DNA of 64,000 nt from Escherichia phage vB_Ec-M-J. The stretch lies in the sequence record OQ718158.1; one strand, written 5' to 3'. The translations under genes were made by a program, and so were the position numbers. The notes below the pieces were generated by a model that was given only the letters and a program-made list of their open reading frames with translations, had not been told where the DNA came from and searched no databases. Shown here in pieces: positions 41,180 to 48,598 of the stretch. The first letter of the stretch is position 1. Each line of letters opens with the position of its first letter.

Positions 41180-42169
41180 ATGGCTAAAAAAATTAATGAA
41201 GCACAAGTTAAAATCGATATCGCAGGACTAGAATCTGAAGATCTAGAAACACTATCTCGTATGCTTGCACTAGCTGGTCAAGCCGAGCGTCAAGCTTCTC
41301 CTGTTGCTGCTCCAGTTCCTTCTATGGGGTCAATGACCCCTTCTCTACCACCAATCGCTCCACTCGATATGGATTCAATTGGTGCTGGTGCAGAAGAAGA
41401 AGTTGGTGGTTCAATGGATGGTGCAATTGATGCACCTGTTGAAGACCCATTAGAAGTTGCTGCTGACTCACTATCTGCTGAAGCTGGTGATTTTGGTGGT
41501 GATTCTGAAGAAGTAAGTATGGATGCAGAGTTCGAAGAGCCTGGTGTTGCAGATGAAGAAGAGTTTTCTTTAGATCTTTCCGGTCAACCTCAACTAGAAT
41601 CAGTTGAAGAAGAGGAAGAAGAAGAAATCATCGAAGAAGAATTCGATTTCAGTCGTATGCTATCTCTAGCTGGTCTTCAAGACGAACCAGAAGATGAATA
41701 TTCAGTAGAAGGTAACCCAGATACTGAAGTTAAAGTTGAAGAAAACACTTTCCTACCAGACCTAACCATCTCTGAAGATGAAGAACAAGGTGACAGTACT
41801 GATTTTGGACCTTACAACACTGAAGCTGATGCCGTTCGTGACGGTCAAGCTAAAACTAATGGTGTAGAAGGTGACCACTTTGTTGTTATTACCAAGGGTA
41901 ACAAGTTTTACTGGAGACGTGTCGTTGATGAAGATGTTGACAACCGTCCTGAACCAGAGTACTATGACAATGACGGTAACGAGAACCGTGTTCACAAATT
42001 TGAACCTAAGTTCCCAGGTACTGCTCTAGGTGACAACCCACTCAATGTTAATGAGAGTGATGAGTCCGTGGAAGGTAACGAAGAACTAGAAGATGAAAGC
42101 GATGAAGAAGTCGAAGACATTTTCGAAAGTCTCCAGAAGAAATATCAACAATTTCTAGGGGACAAATAA
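41180..42169 (+). CDS. highly acidic protein (possible scaffold or internal protein)
   Basis: 329 aa; long Glu/Asp-rich low-complexity tracts. Confidence 0.5.
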   Translation: MAKKINEAQVKIDIAGLESEDLETLSRMLALAGQAERQASPVAAPVPSMGSMTPSLPPIAPLDMDSIGAGAEEEVGGSMDGAIDAPVEDPLEVAADSLSAEAGDFGGDSEEVSMDAEFEEPGVADEEEFSLDLSGQPQLESVEEEEEEEIIEEEFDFSRMLSLAGLQDEPEDEYSVEGNPDTEVKVEENTFLPDLTISEDEEQGDSTDFGPYNTEADAVRDGQAKTNGVEGDHFVVITKGNKFYWRRVVDEDVDNRPEPEYYDNDGNENRVHKFEPKFPGTALGDNPLNVNESDESVEGNEELEDESDEEVEDIFESLQKKYQQFLGDK

Positions 42170-42566: not shown

Positions 42567-42944
42567 ATGATTCCTGAACCACACAACAGTACTGAATTTC
42601 AAAACGATGTACTTTTAAAAGTTAGAGAAGTACATGGATCAGACGCTGAATTAACAGACCGTATGCTTCTGATGTCAATTTTTGAAAATTTCAGAACTGG
42701 CGGTGGTTTAAGACTTAGCAAGTTTGGATATACAATTTGTAAAGAAAACATTCTTTATGAATTTACAAAAATCCCCTTGCAAAGAGAGTTCAAAAGTTCT
42801 ATAATCTTTACATCGCTTGATAGGATATGTACTTCACCCTACTATGTAGAAGGGCAGTACATATACCTCTCGGACGCAATGATAGTTACAGAGTTAACAT
42901 TGTGTGGTGATGATTTTAGAATGTTATTTTCGATGCACATGTAG
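42567..42944 (+). CDS. hypothetical protein
   Basis: 125 aa ORF. Confidence 0.45.
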   Translation: MIPEPHNSTEFQNDVLLKVREVHGSDAELTDRMLLMSIFENFRTGGGLRLSKFGYTICKENILYEFTKIPLQREFKSSIIFTSLDRICTSPYYVEGQYIYLSDAMIVTELTLCGDDFRMLFSMHM

Positions 42945-42968
42945 CTTCGAAAATAAAGAAAAAAAGAT

Positions 42969-42996
42969 GTTGACAACGCCGAATGATGTGTTATAA
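42969..42996 (+). promoter_or_regulatory. strong sigma70-type promoter P1 (TTGACA-16-TATAAT, TG-extended)
   Basis: ttgaca 42969-42974, tgt-tataat ending 42996. Confidence 0.65.
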
Positions 42997-43061
42997 TGAC
43001 CATCACGAAGCAAGTTTTCAAAATCACAAGATGTGAGATTGAAAAAGAAATAAAAAAGTTG

Positions 43062-43089
43062 TTGACAAGCCTGAACGATGTGATATAAT
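43062..43089 (+). promoter_or_regulatory. strong sigma70-type promoter P2 (TTGACA-16-TGaTATAAT)
   Basis: ttgaca 43062-43067, tataat 43084-43089 with TG at 43081-43082. Confidence 0.65.
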
Positions 43090-43152
43090 GACCACATCAA
43101 GACGGCAAAGAGAAATGCCTTTTTAAATACACGGATGATTCATGAAGTAACA

Positions 43153-43193
43153 AAGGAACTGATAAGTTAAAAATTCTTTTAACACAGTTCCTT
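43153..43193 (+). other. leader hairpin (9-bp stem, 23-nt loop) between promoters
   Basis: aaggaactg ... cagttcctt; overlaps the -35 of P3. Confidence 0.4.
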
Positions 43194-43220
43194 TACTTTT
43201 GCCCACGGATTGGCTATAAT
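43192..43220 (+). promoter_or_regulatory. sigma70-like promoter P3 (TTTACT-17-TATAAT)
   Basis: tttact 43192-43197, tataat 43215-43220. Confidence 0.45.
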
Positions 43221-43260
43221 AGAAACCTAAACGATTTTATCCAACAAAAGGAAAATATAC

Positions 43261-44589
43261 ATGTCTACTCAAAACAACGATATCCTGAACGTAAAACTGA
43301 CTCCTAAGAAAGCTAAAGAAGCAATGGCACTGGCTGACATGATTCAAGATAGCCTGATGATTTGGGGTAGCCCTGGTATCGGTAAATCTGCTATCGCACG
43401 TCAATACGCTGATGAGAACTACCCACTGCGTAAAGATAACGTGGCAAAAATTGAGTTCATGAAACAACAAATCGAAGCTGATACTGAAAATGCTGATCAA
43501 CTTCGCCGTGAACTGGCAGCGTTTGAAGCCAAACTAATCGACCAAGACACTAACTTTATCGATTTCCGTTTGTCTCAGATTGAACCAAGTGACCTTCGCG
43601 GTATCCCAGTTCCAGAGAAAGTGTTCCTTGATATGGATGGTAAGCAACTGATTGAATCTGAACTGGCTAGTGCACAAGATTACATCGCTGAAACAGCAGT
43701 TGTGTGGGCAGCACCTAAAGTACTGAAGCTGTCTCCAGATTGGAAAGGTGTTATTCTGTTTGACGAAATCAACTCTGCAATGCCGATTGTACAGGCAGCG
43801 TCTTATCAGCTAATCCTCGACCGTTGTGTTGGTGAGATGAAGCTACCTAAGACTGCACTGATTCTCGCAGCAGGTAACCGTGAAACTGATGGCGGTGTAA
43901 CGTTCTCTCTAGCTACACCACTGCGTGACCGTATGACCCACATCGAAATGATTCCTTATCATCAAGATTGGATTAACGATTATGCGATTGGTAAGCGTTT
44001 GAACCCAGCAACTGTAGCGTTCATCAACAACACTGGTGCTAAACACTTCAACACCCTTAGCCCACAAGATCCTTCTCACTGTGGTGGTACTTCTCCACGT
44101 TCATGGGAAGCAGTAGCACGCTACGAAGATCTGAAGAAAGTTAAGAACATTGATAAAGAAGTGTTCCGTGCGATGATTGCAGGTCGTGTTGGTGAAGGCG
44201 TAGCAACTGAATACATCGAGTATGTTGATAACGTAGCTAAACTACCAGATACCATGTCCATCCTACAGGGTGAGATTAAAGAGATTGATGCTTCGCTTGA
44301 TATTTCCGCGAACTACTTCATCACTCTGAATCTGGTTTACAAAATTATCGACCTCTACAATGAGAAGCAAGAACAACGTCTACCAGTGGAAGATTGGGGT
44401 AAGCTGTGCAACAACTTCATCACCTTCCTAGACCATAACTTCTCTGCAACTCAAGCAGAACTGGCAGTACTGGCGATTCGTACCATCACGCTTCATAAAG
44501 TAGCGATTACGATTAAAGATGTACCAGCGTTTAAAGACTTCGTTATGAAGTACTCTGACCTAGTACGTAAAGCACGCTCTCTTGGTTAA
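43261..44589 (+). CDS. AAA+ ATPase, MoxR/CobS-like (AAA_5)
   Basis: 442 aa; Walker A GSPGIGKS, Walker B ILFDEINSA; CTG-rich codon usage unlike neighbours. Confidence 0.7.
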   Translation: MSTQNNDILNVKLTPKKAKEAMALADMIQDSLMIWGSPGIGKSAIARQYADENYPLRKDNVAKIEFMKQQIEADTENADQLRRELAAFEAKLIDQDTNFIDFRLSQIEPSDLRGIPVPEKVFLDMDGKQLIESELASAQDYIAETAVVWAAPKVLKLSPDWKGVILFDEINSAMPIVQAASYQLILDRCVGEMKLPKTALILAAGNRETDGGVTFSLATPLRDRMTHIEMIPYHQDWINDYAIGKRLNPATVAFINNTGAKHFNTLSPQDPSHCGGTSPRSWEAVARYEDLKKVKNIDKEVFRAMIAGRVGEGVATEYIEYVDNVAKLPDTMSILQGEIKEIDASLDISANYFITLNLVYKIIDLYNEKQEQRLPVEDWGKLCNNFITFLDHNFSATQAELAVLAIRTITLHKVAITIKDVPAFKDFVMKYSDLVRKARSLG

Positions 44590-44614
44590 TAATTAAAAAG
44601 AGTGTTGACAAGGA

Positions 44615-44641
44615 GGATACCACATGGTATCCTTCTTTTAT
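44615..44641 (+). terminator. intrinsic terminator (perfect palindrome)
   Basis: ggatacc-acat-ggtatcc followed by ttcttttat. Confidence 0.6.
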
Positions 44642-44664
44642 CTTAACTAAACGAGGAAATACAA

Positions 44665-46074
44665 ATGTCAGATAAACGTTTCAGTGATGTTACTCCGGCT
44701 CTCCAGAAAGAATGTCAAGATCGTCTGATCTTAGCTCGCACATCTTTAATGCTAACATTCCCATTCTTTGGTGTACTGGCTTCTCGTCTGCGTCCAGTTG
44801 CAAACAACACATGGTGTCGTACTTTGGCTGTAGATGGTAAGCATTTATTCTACAACGTAGAATTCATCATGGGTATTCAGGACCAATCCAAAAAGTCAGC
44901 ATACGAAGAAGCAATTCGTGAGAAACATCCTGAAGTAACTGAAGAACAACTTAAAGAAATGACAGAAGGTTTGACCGATGAAAACCTGATTGCAGTTATC
45001 TGTCATGAGATTCTTCACTGTGCATATGACCACTTCTTGCGTCGTGGTATGCGTGACCCGCAGCGTTATAACCGTGCTGCTGACTATGCAATTAACCAGA
45101 TTCTTGTTCGTGATAAAATTGGTAAAATCCAAAGCCAATGGCTGTACGATAAAAAGTACGATGGTATGACTGCTGAAGAGATTTATAACATTCTCGAAGA
45201 AGAAGATAAGCAGGATCAAGACGGAGAAGGTGAAGGAAATCCACAGGCTGGTAGTGGTGAGGGTGAAGGTAAATCACGCGGTACTTTTGGTGATATCAAA
45301 GATGGTAAAGGCAAAGGTACAACAATTGACCAGCATGACGTTCCACAAGAAGGTCAAGAGGGTGGTTCAAGTGAGAAACAAAAACGTGATTATATGGATG
45401 ATTTCAAAACAGCAATGATGAATGCTGCTCGTGCAGGTGGTACTCCTGCTGAAATCGCACGTATGATTAACAACTTCAAAGAACCTAAGATTGACTGGCG
45501 TTCCAAACTTCACCGCACACTGCGTAGCTGGTTGAAGTCTGATGCAACTTATCAAAATCCTAATCGTCGTTCATGGGGTGCTGGTTTTGGTAGTTCTGGT
45601 TCATTCTACGGGAATCCAATCTTCCCTGGTATGAAACCAGATGATGATATTGATATTGCAATTGCACTAGATGCATCCGGTTCTATCTCTGAAGATATGC
45701 TCCGTGATTTCATCAGTGAAGTACTGGGTATCACTAAGCAGTTTAAACAATTTAAAATCCGTATCATGACGTTCGATACTGAAGTTTATACTGTTAAAGA
45801 TTACAAAACTGGTGAAGAGAGTAAGATTCTCGAATATCCAGTGAAAGGTGGTGGTGGTACTGACTTTGAAGCAGTATGGGTTCATATGAAGCATGACAAC
45901 TATAAGCCTAAACAGCTTATTATGTTTACCGATGGTGAGCCGTGGCAGTCATGGGGTGATCCTGATTACTGTAAGACACTGTTTGTTATCCACAGTAATC
46001 CTAACAAACAAGCACCATTTGGCGAAACTGTACACTACGAATATGAAGCTGACAAAAAGCGTCAACGTAGCTAA
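44665..46074 (+). CDS. VWA-domain protein with N-terminal HExxH metallopeptidase-like domain (DUF2201 / CobT-like)
   Basis: 469 aa; HEILH motif; MIDAS-type DASGS; partner of the upstream ATPase. Confidence 0.65.
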   Translation: MSDKRFSDVTPALQKECQDRLILARTSLMLTFPFFGVLASRLRPVANNTWCRTLAVDGKHLFYNVEFIMGIQDQSKKSAYEEAIREKHPEVTEEQLKEMTEGLTDENLIAVICHEILHCAYDHFLRRGMRDPQRYNRAADYAINQILVRDKIGKIQSQWLYDKKYDGMTAEEIYNILEEEDKQDQDGEGEGNPQAGSGEGEGKSRGTFGDIKDGKGKGTTIDQHDVPQEGQEGGSSEKQKRDYMDDFKTAMMNAARAGGTPAEIARMINNFKEPKIDWRSKLHRTLRSWLKSDATYQNPNRRSWGAGFGSSGSFYGNPIFPGMKPDDDIDIAIALDASGSISEDMLRDFISEVLGITKQFKQFKIRIMTFDTEVYTVKDYKTGEESKILEYPVKGGGGTDFEAVWVHMKHDNYKPKQLIMFTDGEPWQSWGDPDYCKTLFVIHSNPNKQAPFGETVHYEYEADKKRQRS

Positions 46075-46086
46075 GTACTAAATAAT

Positions 46087-46117
46087 GAGAACGGAAAATT
46101 CCGTTCTCTACTTTTTT
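46087..46117 (+). terminator. intrinsic terminator
   Basis: gagaacgg-aaaatt-ccgttctc followed by tactttttt. Confidence 0.65.
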
Positions 46118-46140
46118 CAGCGGGACAGCTTGGAAAAAGG

Positions 46141-46149
46141 TGATATAAT
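46141..46149 (+). promoter_or_regulatory. extended -10 element (TGaTATAAT)
   Basis: tgatataat at 46141-46149. Confidence 0.35.
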
Positions 46150-47075: not shown

Positions 47076-47672
47076 ATGAATAAAATAGAATTAGATGAAG
47101 CAATCAATGGTTTATCTAATGTATGTTTCAGTGGCGGGGCAGCAGGTGCTGACCGCCTTTTTTCTATCTATGCAAAAGACAATGGATTTGAAGTAATAAA
47201 TTTTTCATTCAAGGGTCACCAAAGCAGCGTAGATGAAAATACTATATTAGAAATTCCACCCAATATCCTTTGTGATAGTTCAATATTAAAACAATTAAAC
47301 ATTGCATGTTACTCTTTACGCCGTAAAGTTCCTAAGCCTGGTTCGTATGTATATAACTTACTTGCAAGGAATAGTTACCAGATACTTAATACAAAAAGAG
47401 TATATTGTATTGCAAATATTACATCACCTACGCAAGTTTCAGGTGGAACTGCATGGGCCGTACAGATGTATATGGATTCAGTTGACAATCCAGAAATATA
47501 TTGTTATGATATGAACACTCGCTCTGTATTTTATTATGATACAGTACTGAAAGAGTTTACTGAAACATTCTCAATACCAGCACCACACGGTAACTGGACT
47601 GGGATTGGTTCACGTAATGCTACACAAAAACACATGGAACACTTTATTACATTTTTCAAGGACGTAAAATGA
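47076..47672 (+). CDS. hypothetical protein (possible SLOG/DprA-like Rossmann fold, tentative)
   Basis: 198 aa; Gly-rich CFSGGAAGADRLF motif near the N-terminus. Confidence 0.45.
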   Translation: MNKIELDEAINGLSNVCFSGGAAGADRLFSIYAKDNGFEVINFSFKGHQSSVDENTILEIPPNILCDSSILKQLNIACYSLRRKVPKPGSYVYNLLARNSYQILNTKRVYCIANITSPTQVSGGTAWAVQMYMDSVDNPEIYCYDMNTRSVFYYDTVLKEFTETFSIPAPHGNWTGIGSRNATQKHMEHFITFFKDVK

Positions 47673-48598
47673 AACAACTACAAGAACTATATCAAAGAAT
47701 TCTGGATCAAGGTGTCGAAAGCGTTGATCGTACTGGTGTTGGCACTATCAAGCTAATCGGACAACAAATGCGTTTTGACCTAAAAGAAGGTTTCCCAGCA
47801 GTAACTACTAAACGTTTGGCTTGGAAAGCAATGACTTCAGAATTGTTATGGTTTATTGAAGGTTCTCACGATGAGCGTCGTCTGTGTGAAATTTTACACG
47901 GGACACGTGATGTAGAAAAGAAAACAATTTGGACAGACAACTACCTTAATCAAGGTGTAAGCCTTGGTTATTCTGATGGTGAGCTTGGCCCAGTTTATGG
48001 TAAACAATGGCGTGAATGGGAAGATTATAAATTCAGTTCCAGTACTGAAGAAATTCAAGAACTAAAAGATAAAGGGTATAAAGTTATTGATTATACTGGT
48101 TCACATGGTGTTATTATGCGTCGTGTAACTGACCAGCTAAAACAAGTTATTGAAGGTATCAATACTGATCCATACGGTCGTCGTCACATTCTAAGTGCAT
48201 GGAACGTTGGTGAGCTTGATGCTATGACTTTGCCACCCTGTCATAGCTTTGTGCAGTTTTGTGTTGTACAGGGTAAACTAAGTTGTATTCTTCATCAACG
48301 TAGTGCTGATCTATTCCTTGGTGTGCCATTTAATATTAGTAGTTACTCACTACTAACTCATATGATTGCACAAATTACAGGGTTAGATGTTGGTGAATTT
48401 ATTTGGAATGGTGGCGACTGCCATATCTACCAAAACCATATTGAACAAGTAAAAGAGCAACTCCAACGTGAACCACGTACATTACCAGAATTATGGCTAG
48501 ATCCTACTATTACTGATATTGAAGATTTCACTATGGATTCTTTCAAATTAGTTAATTACGATCCAATGCCAACAATCAAAGCACCAATGGCTGTATAA
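47669..48598 (+). CDS. td: thymidylate synthase
   Basis: 309 aa; PPCHSFVQF, LHQRSADLFLGVPFNISSYSLLTHM and C-terminal KAPMAV; Asn retained in PFNIS (not dCMP hydroxymethylase). Confidence 0.85.
   Translation: MKQLQELYQRILDQGVESVDRTGVGTIKLIGQQMRFDLKEGFPAVTTKRLAWKAMTSELLWFIEGSHDERRLCEILHGTRDVEKKTIWTDNYLNQGVSLGYSDGELGPVYGKQWREWEDYKFSSSTEEIQELKDKGYKVIDYTGSHGVIMRRVTDQLKQVIEGINTDPYGRRHILSAWNVGELDAMTLPPCHSFVQFCVVQGKLSCILHQRSADLFLGVPFNISSYSLLTHMIAQITGLDVGEFIWNGGDCHIYQNHIEQVKEQLQREPRTLPELWLDPTITDIEDFTMDSFKLVNYDPMPTIKAPMAV

Follow-up and report, generated by a model that had tools for sequence, protein, structure and literature searches.

The window analysed here is a 64,000-nucleotide stretch of the genome of Escherichia phage vB_Ec-M-J (OQ718158.1). 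On its plus strand lie two neighbouring genes, one encoding a 442-aa MoxR-class AAA+ ATPase (43261-44589), a homologue of gp24 of phage N4, and the other a 469-aa homologue of N4 gp25 (44665-46074), in which a zincin metallopeptidase domain (DUF2201_N) is fused to a von Willebrand factor A (VWA)-like domain (DUF2201) with a metal ion-dependent adhesion site (MIDAS). Two perfect sigma-70 promoter sites and a terminator-like leader hairpin precede the ATPase gene, and the pair forms a unit bounded by terminators. Because of this promoter and terminator layout, which comprises the leader hairpin, an intergenic terminator and a closing terminator, the two-gene unit is autonomous. The region is 99.5-99.8% identical to the jumbo coliphages Ecwhy_1, EC.P1, fEgEco12 and WPEC5 and shares about 87% identity with 121Q, PBECO4 and phAPEC6 (Asteriusvirus); these close relatives are all Rak2-like phages of about 350-380 kb. 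The presence of the pair in the window phage was already known and adds nothing new to the literature. What is added here is evidence for strong pre-late expression, for leader and internal terminators, and for lineage-specific recoding.

A MoxR-class ATPase and a zincin-VWA partner

The open reading frames (ORFs) and motifs named in the original prediction were borne out exactly, and WGSPGIGKS in the ATPase, like HEILH and DASGS in the second protein, occupies invariant columns in alignments of 43 ATPase and 36 peptidase-VWA sequences. Nine ATPase residues (G36, G39, K42, S43, D168, E169, N206, R224 and R280) are invariant, covering Walker A, Walker B, sensor 1 and the arginine finger/sensor 2. 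The ATPase belongs to PHROG 1297 (E 3e-105) and carries a helical insert of about 40 aa after the Walker A helix as well as a helical C-terminal domain. Its Pfam scores are low, barely above the cut-off for PF00004 (21.5 vs 21.2 bits) and below it for AAA_3 (17.9 bits, cut-off 27), with AAA_5 not among the matches listed. Among the 43 aligned homologues, 12 match AAA_5, 10 match AAA_3 and 6 match bpMoxR, a model that the window ATPase itself does not match. The AlphaFold2 (AF2) model of the ATPase, with a mean per-residue confidence (pLDDT) of 86, finds its best PDB folds in NorQ chains (9qhd and 9qh9, from 2026 NorQD complexes; E 2e-6, target-normalised template-modelling (TM) scores of 0.55-0.60), and CbbQ2 (6l1q, TM 0.58) is matched as well. 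The earlier description "AAA_5-like" is therefore apt by fold and through the homologues, the window protein itself falling below the Pfam cut-off for AAA_5. Given the homologues' profiles, the invariant positions and the AF2 fold matches, the ATPase is predicted to be a MoxR-class motor of the NorQ/CbbQ kind. Searching the PDB by sequence and by profile yielded nothing useful for either protein.

The peptidase-VWA protein is more readily classified. DUF2201_N (E 1.5e-36, 126.8 bits, Pfam cut-off 23.2) and, C-terminal to it, DUF2201/VWA (E 1e-21, 77.8 bits, cut-off 26.4) both exceed their gathering scores and stand in the expected order, and the protein matches PHROG 1314 with E 7e-128. Among the matches listed, PF13203 occurs in 120 of 120 homologues, and PF09967 in all but one truncated protein. 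Across 36 diverse homologues, H114-E115-x-x-H118 is invariant and H123 nearly so, and the complete MIDAS is invariant too (D336-x-S338-x-S340, T399 and D423). The VWA fold was confirmed, and the residues predict a catalytically intact zincin domain. DUF2201_N has no solved or characterised relative, its only other matches being weak ones to PhageMetallopep and M48. Profiles, invariant residues and fold together support the two-gene module first proposed, a MoxR-type ATPase with an HExxH-metallopeptidase/VWA protein. The names attached to the second protein are less reliable: "HNH endonuclease" is a wrong label on PHROG 1314 and on many GenBank/RefSeq records, including that of N4 gp25, and the 121Q record calls the protein "T4-gp25-like", annotation errors that keep spreading.

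The pair is the jumbo-phage version of the N4 gp24/gp25 module. BLASTP aligns gp24 with the ATPase at 29% identity (E 1e-26) and gp25 with the peptidase-VWA protein at 27% (E 1e-32). Both proteins are homologous over their full length, the genes stand side by side in the same order and in the same PHROG families, neither phage has a function assigned to them, and in neither are they late genes, a timing that rests here on promoter class. The jumbo-phage proteins differ in size, the ATPase being about 90 aa longer than gp24, with the helical insert mentioned above, and the peptidase-VWA protein having an insert of about 30 aa and a Gly/acid-rich linker that gp25 does not have. Both gp24 and gp25 belong to the set of 14 core genes of N4-like phages, and in N4 they are middle genes (PMC4193335). 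N4 middle genes are transcribed by phage RNA polymerase II (PA5oct paper), whereas the jumbo-phage pair has predicted host sigma-70 promoters and, unlike the N4 pair, adjoins structural genes. The peptidase-VWA protein occurs in 728 phage records by tblastn, spanning Rak2-like and PA5oct-like phages, Atu_ph07, Vequintavirinae and Schitoviridae, and a profile search returned 18,036 clusters at 50% identity with E <= 1e-10. In phAPEC6 the two proteins are annotated as gp265c, "MoxR ATPase", and gp264c, "N4 gp25-like". Iyer, Anantharaman, Krishnan, Burroughs and Aravind (2021) described the identical gene pair in the identical phage group, group 2.2 of the jumbo phages, as a MoxR-vWA pair whose metallopeptidase is N-terminal.

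Beyond N4, the resemblances are those of architecture. NorQ/NorD and CbbQ/CbbO provide the best solved structural matches of the ATPase and also have a VWA-MIDAS partner; in the NorQD structure paper, a finger of the NorD VWA domain inserts into the pore at the centre of the NorQ hexamer. NorD and CbbO, unlike the phage peptidase-VWA protein, have no zincin domain, their systems act on metalloenzymes (NOR and Rubisco), and profile searches gave no sequence-level family membership of the pair with either system. The original prediction had also drawn RavA-ViaA, CobS/CobT and NTPase-VWA conflict systems into the comparison, and these kinships find no support. RavA-ViaA is likewise a two-gene operon of a MoxR ATPase and a VWA partner, but ViaA has no HExxH domain, no RavA or ViaA model is matched in Pfam or NCBIfam, and RavA is absent from the 50 best fold matches listed. 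Nor does any CobS, CobT or chelatase family reach its threshold (Mg_chelatase scores 16.3 bits vs a cut-off of 20.3). Ternary conflict systems contain a vWA-MoxR core, occasionally with a metallopeptidase effector (Kaur, Burroughs, Iyer and Aravind 2020), but near the pair there is no third component of such systems (VMAP, FtsH or beta-propeller), and the PADLOC defence models gave 0 matches. A viral MoxR ATPase and a VWA protein are also found in Acidianus two-tailed virus, where they are tied to virion morphogenesis (Iyer 2021, Kaur 2020). By the description in Iyer 2021, the comparison is with an archaeal virus whose VWA partner has no peptidase domain.

Promoters, leader hairpin and terminators

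The 316-bp gap upstream of the ATPase gene holds two promoters on the plus strand, P1 (42970-42997) and P2 (43062-43089), each reading TTGACA-16-TATAAT with a TG extended -10 and an A-rich UP-like tract. They are the sole sigma-70 sites in the window with 12 of 12 consensus positions when both strands are scanned, and by a rough estimate about 0.14 such sites would be expected by chance. A third, weak promoter-like site, P3 (43192-43220, plus strand; TTTACT-17-TATAAT), matches 10 of 12 positions, has no TG and is no better than many chance matches. Of the three tandem promoters originally proposed, two are thus even stronger than described, the first lying one base further on than stated, and the third is weak.

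P1 and P2 arose by local duplication of a 92-bp unit, P1 being the upstream copy and P2 the ancestral one. BLAST returned exactly two copies of the unit per genome, both at this locus, and a genome-wide repeated promoter element was rejected on this ground. P1 is confined to the window phage and 121Q-type relatives (11/12 in 121Q). P2 is a 12/12 site in the window phage, 121Q and Klebsiella phage RCIP0023, and its extended -10 survives in Salmonella phage Munch (GGGACA-17-TATAAT with TG, 10/12) and Erwinia phage pEa12 (TCTGGTATAAT). The pEa12 ATPase gene is preceded by TGAAACA-16-TATAAT; the CBB paper links the TGAAACA-type -35 class to DNA-synthesis genes. P3 is kept in 121Q, reaches 9/12 in RCIP0023 and is absent in Munch and pEa12.

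In class, these promoters match the early genes of the phage. Within 20 kb, the early region of the same species, seen in fEgEco12, holds five sites that match at 12/12 positions and nine at 11/12, every one of them on the coding strand, and the pair's promoters share with it the consensus -35 and -10 and the UP-like tract of the host sigma-70 early class. RpoD-like promoters with UP elements were assigned to early genes in the CBB paper. Late genes of the window, such as that for the tail sheath, carry the late motif AATAAATA, which is absent at the pair's unit. The T4-type late promoter TATAAATA was also considered and occurs nowhere in the window. The same extended -10 box recurs at 30730-30777 and 46122-46149 (TGTGATATAATGA, GGTGATATAAT), directly after terminators and upstream of genes at 30778 and 46184, and may mark a non-late promoter class scattered in the structural region.

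Three hairpins punctuate the unit. Between P2 and the ATPase start codon lies a terminator-like hairpin followed by ACUUUUG (43152-43194, plus strand; folding free energy -15.4 kcal/mol, z -4.4), which the original prediction had missed; its description of the genes as standing behind the promoters is right as to position, but a terminator intervenes before the ATPase gene. With its start inferred from P2, the leader RNA would run from 43097 to 43204 on the plus strand and end in this hairpin. The fold recurs in RCIP0023, Munch and pEa12, an A-U pair being replaced in compensatory fashion by C-G, and in the phage G17 record the depositors list it as an ARNOLD terminator. An intrinsic terminator with a 12-bp stem and a U run separates the two genes (44610-44637, plus strand; -19.9 kcal/mol, z -4.6), and a terminator is annotated between the genes in Munch too. 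The unit is closed by a hairpin with a 9-bp stem and T runs on both strands, which makes it a bidirectional terminator (46087-46108; -14.2 kcal/mol, z -3.4), annotated as a terminator in both G17 and Munch.

From this arrangement, the likely controls of the unit are attenuation or antitermination in the leader, or a short leader RNA, together with less transcription of the adaptor-protease than of the motor. The leader hairpin itself may serve as an attenuator, or a short RNA may have its 3' end there. The stronger version of the latter idea, in which the chief product of P1 and P2 is a short non-coding RNA that stops at the leader terminator (about 200 nt from P1, about 110 nt from P2) while ATPase mRNA comes from P3 or read-through, is judged unlikely. 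It would account for the conserved hairpin and U-tract 55-100 nt past the inferred start, for the compensatory change and the independent terminator annotation, and for a conserved 5' motif, CAUNAAGAC, after the -10. P3, which overlaps the 3' side of the leader hairpin, would also fit the "terminator then promoter" layout of other intergenic regions of the window, and the related phage PA5oct makes abundant non-coding RNAs (PA5oct paper). The U-tract, however, is short and interrupted, so termination may be partial, and the leader's middle varies in length and sequence. P3 is limited to the closest relatives, which would leave the distant ones without a promoter for the gene, and a strong promoter fits the extreme codon optimisation of the ATPase. 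An Rfam search of the region gave one chance-level match only and no family for the leader.

Other candidates in the leader were set aside: an 11-aa leader-peptide ORF at 43134 is not conserved in relatives, and a long-range pairing of GGAUGA with UUAUCC is not conserved in RCIP0023. A pattern scan of IMG/VR for further leader sequences returned 4 loci only and no new lineages.

Codon usage and inheritance

The codon usage of the pair departs clearly from that of the window, both in the codon adaptation index (CAI) and in Fisher tests of CTG usage. With the E. coli weights of Sharp and Li applied to 75 window ORFs, the CAI averages 0.279 (standard deviation 0.073), and the ATPase gene reaches 0.461 and the VWA gene 0.446. 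The two genes have the top values among window ORFs longer than 100 codons, making the ATPase gene the most codon-optimised long gene. CTG accounts for 19 of 40 leucine codons in the ATPase gene and 8 of 26 in the VWA gene, compared with 33 of 1003 in the 31 other long genes (p = 3e-16 and 3e-6, respectively). The ATPase gene has no TTA, ATA, AGA/AGG or GGA codons and prefers AAC, TTC, TAC, TCT and ACT/ACC. GC content is 44% in the ATPase gene and 41.5% in the VWA gene vs about 36% locally, with CTG, GCG and ACG enriched in the ATPase gene. The atypical codon usage judged by eye for the ATPase gene is therefore real and strong, but it affects both genes rather than the ATPase gene alone. The accompanying contrast between a CGT-rich ATPase gene and an AGA preference elsewhere is overstated, since in the rest of the window CGT makes up 65% of arginine codons and AGA 16%.

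The bias also extends to codons for which the phage supplies tRNAs of its own. Its species carries tRNAs for Ser-UGA, Ser-GCU, Met, Asn and two for Thr-UGU; no leucine tRNA is found in the window or in the tRNA cluster of the species. The codons TCA, AGT and ACA, read by phage tRNAs, make up 11% of serine and threonine codons in the ATPase gene and 48% pooled elsewhere (p = 4e-7). Among the 33 long genes the ATPase gene is the sole avoider of these codons, the others ranging from 33 to 69%, and the VWA gene shows no avoidance.

Comparison across lineages indicates that this bias has been retuned repeatedly. CTG supplies 19 of 40 ATPase leucine codons in the window phage, 17 of 41 in 121Q and 28 of 37 in RCIP0023, but none of 47 in Munch, where CTA supplies 45, and none of 34 in pEa12. 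Rare codons are nonetheless avoided by the ATPase gene in all four enterobacterial lineages: the orthologues of the window phage, 121Q and RCIP0023 have zero TTA, ATA, AGR and GGA codons, and that of Munch has at most 1 GGA. The CAI of the ATPase gene is at least that of the tail sheath gene in 5 of 5 lineages. Synonymous divergence (dS) from 121Q is 0.41 for the ATPase gene, 0.63 for the sheath gene and 0.81 for the VWA gene. Because the bias is retuned in each lineage, rare codons are avoided and the dS of the ATPase gene is reduced, the codon bias reads as a signature of strong translational selection. Of the two causes suggested at the outset, strong expression selection is the one that the rare-codon avoidance, the CAI and the reduced dS support.

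The other suggested cause, a separate origin, does not fit the inheritance of the pair. Its position and orientation are unchanged in phages of Escherichia (121Q), Klebsiella (RCIP0023), Salmonella (Munch) and Erwinia (pEa12). The protein identities of the ATPase to these four, 0.94, 0.79, 0.77 and 0.60, run parallel to those of the tail sheath (0.93, 0.71, 0.73 and 0.73), and the ratio of non-synonymous to synonymous divergence (dN/dS) is 0.06-0.24. Synteny, sheath-parallel identities and dN/dS show both genes to be inherited vertically and under purifying selection. A recent horizontal acquisition from an enterobacterial or other phage genome is accordingly very improbable as the origin of the atypical codons. 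The raised GC content and the enrichment of CTG, GCG and ACG would be expected of it, and the family is widespread on mobile elements, but it is opposed by the synteny in all Rak2-like lineages examined and by the sheath-like divergence. The bias is moreover absent or different in orthologues (Munch and pEa12 have 0 CTG), in keeping with recoding lineage by lineage, and the avoidance of rare A/T-ending codons exceeds what composition alone explains.

Leucine codons differ among the gene classes of the phage. The highly expressed late genes (31796-34459 and 41180-42169 on the plus strand, 59418-62567 on the minus strand) use CTA almost exclusively and never CTG; the sheath gene has CTA at 46 of 66 leucine codons and CTG at 0, CTA being the rarest leucine codon of E. 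coli. Genes of the early region are intermediate in CTG. This pattern suggests that leucine decoding changes during infection. T-even phages have been reported to cleave host tRNA-Leu(CAG), a point on which a literature search gave nothing usable. Two other explanations were rejected: CTG avoidance at the DNA level through restriction or methylation, as the CTG word has an observed-to-expected ratio of 1.29 and is common out of frame, and a phage leucine tRNA favouring CTA, as no such tRNA was found.

Taken further, the ATPase may be among the phage's most abundant proteins, with its synthesis timed by the choice of host codons (CTG, TCT, ACT/ACC and AAC) as opposed to late CTA and phage-tRNA codons, a combination that we consider rather improbable. 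If infection does alter the leucine-decoding tRNA pool, translation of the CTG-rich motor gene would be confined to an early phase of infection and would cease thereafter. So abundant a motor might work in stoichiometric amounts, as a scaffold or cage, instead of catalytically, and, together with the leader terminator or short RNA, codon choice would add an unrecognised layer of temporal control over a universal phage core module. Directly before this gene, which has the highest CAI, stands a 125-aa gene (42567-42944) with the lowest CAI of the window (0.166), labelled "transcriptional regulator HdfR" in fEgEco12 without Pfam support.

Proposed role and competing readings

The reading preferred here is that the N4 gp24/gp25-type module is an abundant, pre-late, ATP-driven machine for remodelling and cleavage, with a probability of about 0.45. 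Expression is probably early or delayed-early and very high, judging by promoters and codons. Under this model, unmodified host RNA polymerase would transcribe the unit before the late genes, and the leader terminator would gate read-through into the ATPase gene. The intergenic terminator would keep the adaptor-protease sub-stoichiometric to a hexameric motor, with the NorQ-NorD assembly as the model. A protein substrate would then be gripped at one of its acidic residues by the VWA MIDAS site, remodelled by the ATPase ring acting through the adaptor, and cut by the fused zincin, yielding in effect a split, substrate-specific ATP-dependent protease. Because the pair is core in N4-like phages and lies among replication genes, the substrate is more likely a conserved phage or host component of the replication or pre-assembly phase than a strain-specific defence protein.

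The genomic neighbourhoods bear on this choice. In Rak2-like phages, and only there, the pair abuts structural genes, directly following a block of virion genes and heading a small non-structural island that reaches to thymidylate synthase; its neighbours in the window are small proteins with no assigned role, a SLOG/DprA-like protein and thymidylate synthase. The surrounding genes in N4 and LUZ7 are those for dCTP deaminase, rIIA/B, helicase and DNA polymerase, and in Atu_ph07 the pair is near those for DNA polymerase I, glutaredoxin and RNA ligase. A gene annotated as "anti-sigma factor" precedes the peptidase gene in Vequintavirinae, and the MoxR gene is divergent and about 3 kb away. Bacterial copies occur in mobile-looking regions, one of them near a beta-clamp gene.

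Several observations weigh against the remodelling-and-cleavage reading. To our knowledge, MoxR-VWA pairs mostly insert metals or remodel their targets, and none is a proven protease. The expression timing is deduced from promoter class alone, and the leader terminator could stop most P1/P2 transcripts, leaving the gene reliant on P3 or late read-through. Codon optimisation is not a general trait of early-region genes (CTG 10%, phage-tRNA codons 51%), so the bias of the pair is an argument about the amount of expression more than about its timing and would speak first for very high expression read with the host tRNA set. The Munch ATPase gene uses CTA (45/47 leucine codons), as late genes do. 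Finally, the Rak2-like pair adjoins structural genes and the ATPase appears in a virion proteome, as a role in virion assembly predicts.

That role, a late chaperone and maturation protease that would assist the folding or assembly of head or tail components and trim structural proteins, is a serious rival even though it is held doubtful. It is the published proposal for exactly this phage group, drawn from context alone (Iyer et al. 2021), and the MoxR/VWA proteins of Acidianus two-tailed virus, linked to tail growth, are the precedent cited for it. The position of the pair right after the virion gene block holds in all Rak2-like phages, the Munch orthologue is written with the late-gene leucine codon, and purified phAPEC6 virions yielded 6 peptides of gp265c (19% coverage). 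In the same preparations, however, a 217-aa neighbour and thymidylate synthase were also detected, and the peptidase-VWA protein gp264c is not in the virion protein list. Because non-structural thymidylate synthase is listed and the peptidase-VWA protein is not, the detections look more like carry-over of abundant proteins than dedicated packaging. The promoters have the host sigma-70 consensus, not the late motif, and in N4, LUZ7, Atu_ph07 and rV5-like phages the pair lies among middle, replication or unassigned genes rather than structural ones. Promoter class, terminators and codon evidence together favour expression before, or independent of, the late programme. A host take-over or counter-defence protease, which early in infection would destroy a host protein such as an immune sensor, a nucleoid protein, or a sigma factor or regulator, would suit the early-type promoters and the host-tuned codon set, but is considered unlikely. 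Counter-defence genes are usually patchy and fast-evolving, whereas this pair is core in N4-like phages, syntenic across the jumbo clade and under strong purifying selection, and PADLOC gave no match. The "anti-sigma factor" gene before the peptidase gene in Vequintavirinae would favour such a role, but its label is an unverified annotation. Kaur et al. connect vWA-MoxR modules to conflict systems, and one bacterial pair has a conflict-type neighbourhood, beside a 1226-aa reverse-transcriptase protein and insertion sequence (IS) elements.

Quite improbable, in our estimate, is a metal-cofactor insertase or activase for a phage or host metalloenzyme, for example in nucleotide metabolism, acting as NorQ/NorD, CbbQ/CbbO, CoxD/CoxE or CobS/CobT do, with the HExxH domain binding metal or target instead of serving as a protease. 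NorQ and CbbQ are the closest solved folds, and the neighbours would be apt: thymidylate synthase and the SLOG/DprA-like protein here, dCTP deaminase in N4, glutaredoxin and DNA polymerase in Atu_ph07. The HExxH glutamate and the three metal ligands, however, are invariant or nearly so, as in an active peptidase; no conserved metalloenzyme partner is common to the phage families, and no CobS/CobT, NorD or CbbO family is matched.

The original prediction held that the function of such phage pairs has no experimental assignment, and the present survey agrees. No example was found of a characterised MoxR motor coupled to a VWA adaptor with its own zincin, and no transcriptome was found for this clade; the main texts of the PA5oct paper ("ATPase", "MoxR", "Zn-dependent") and of the CRISPRi-ART paper (ATPase, MoxR, vWA, metallopeptidase) make no mention of these terms. 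Pairs of the N4 gp24/gp25 type are nevertheless conserved across large phage groups, namely N4-like, rV5-like, Rak2-like and PA5oct-like phages and Atu_ph07, and the promoter, terminator and codon evidence narrows the focus to the replication or pre-assembly phase and to abundant partners.

Some neighbouring genes are of separate interest. In Mesosutterella porci (L047, 906-7317) the pair stands beside the 1226-aa protein, whose reverse-transcriptase domain is C-terminal, with transposase genes and IS elements nearby; this neighbourhood could be a conflict-system context for the module. In the window, the SLOG/DprA-like gene (DUF2493, PHROG 768; 47076-47672) overlaps the start of the thymidylate synthase gene (47669-48598) by 4 bases, and in RCIP0023 the thymidylate synthase gene is interrupted by an intron-type endonuclease.

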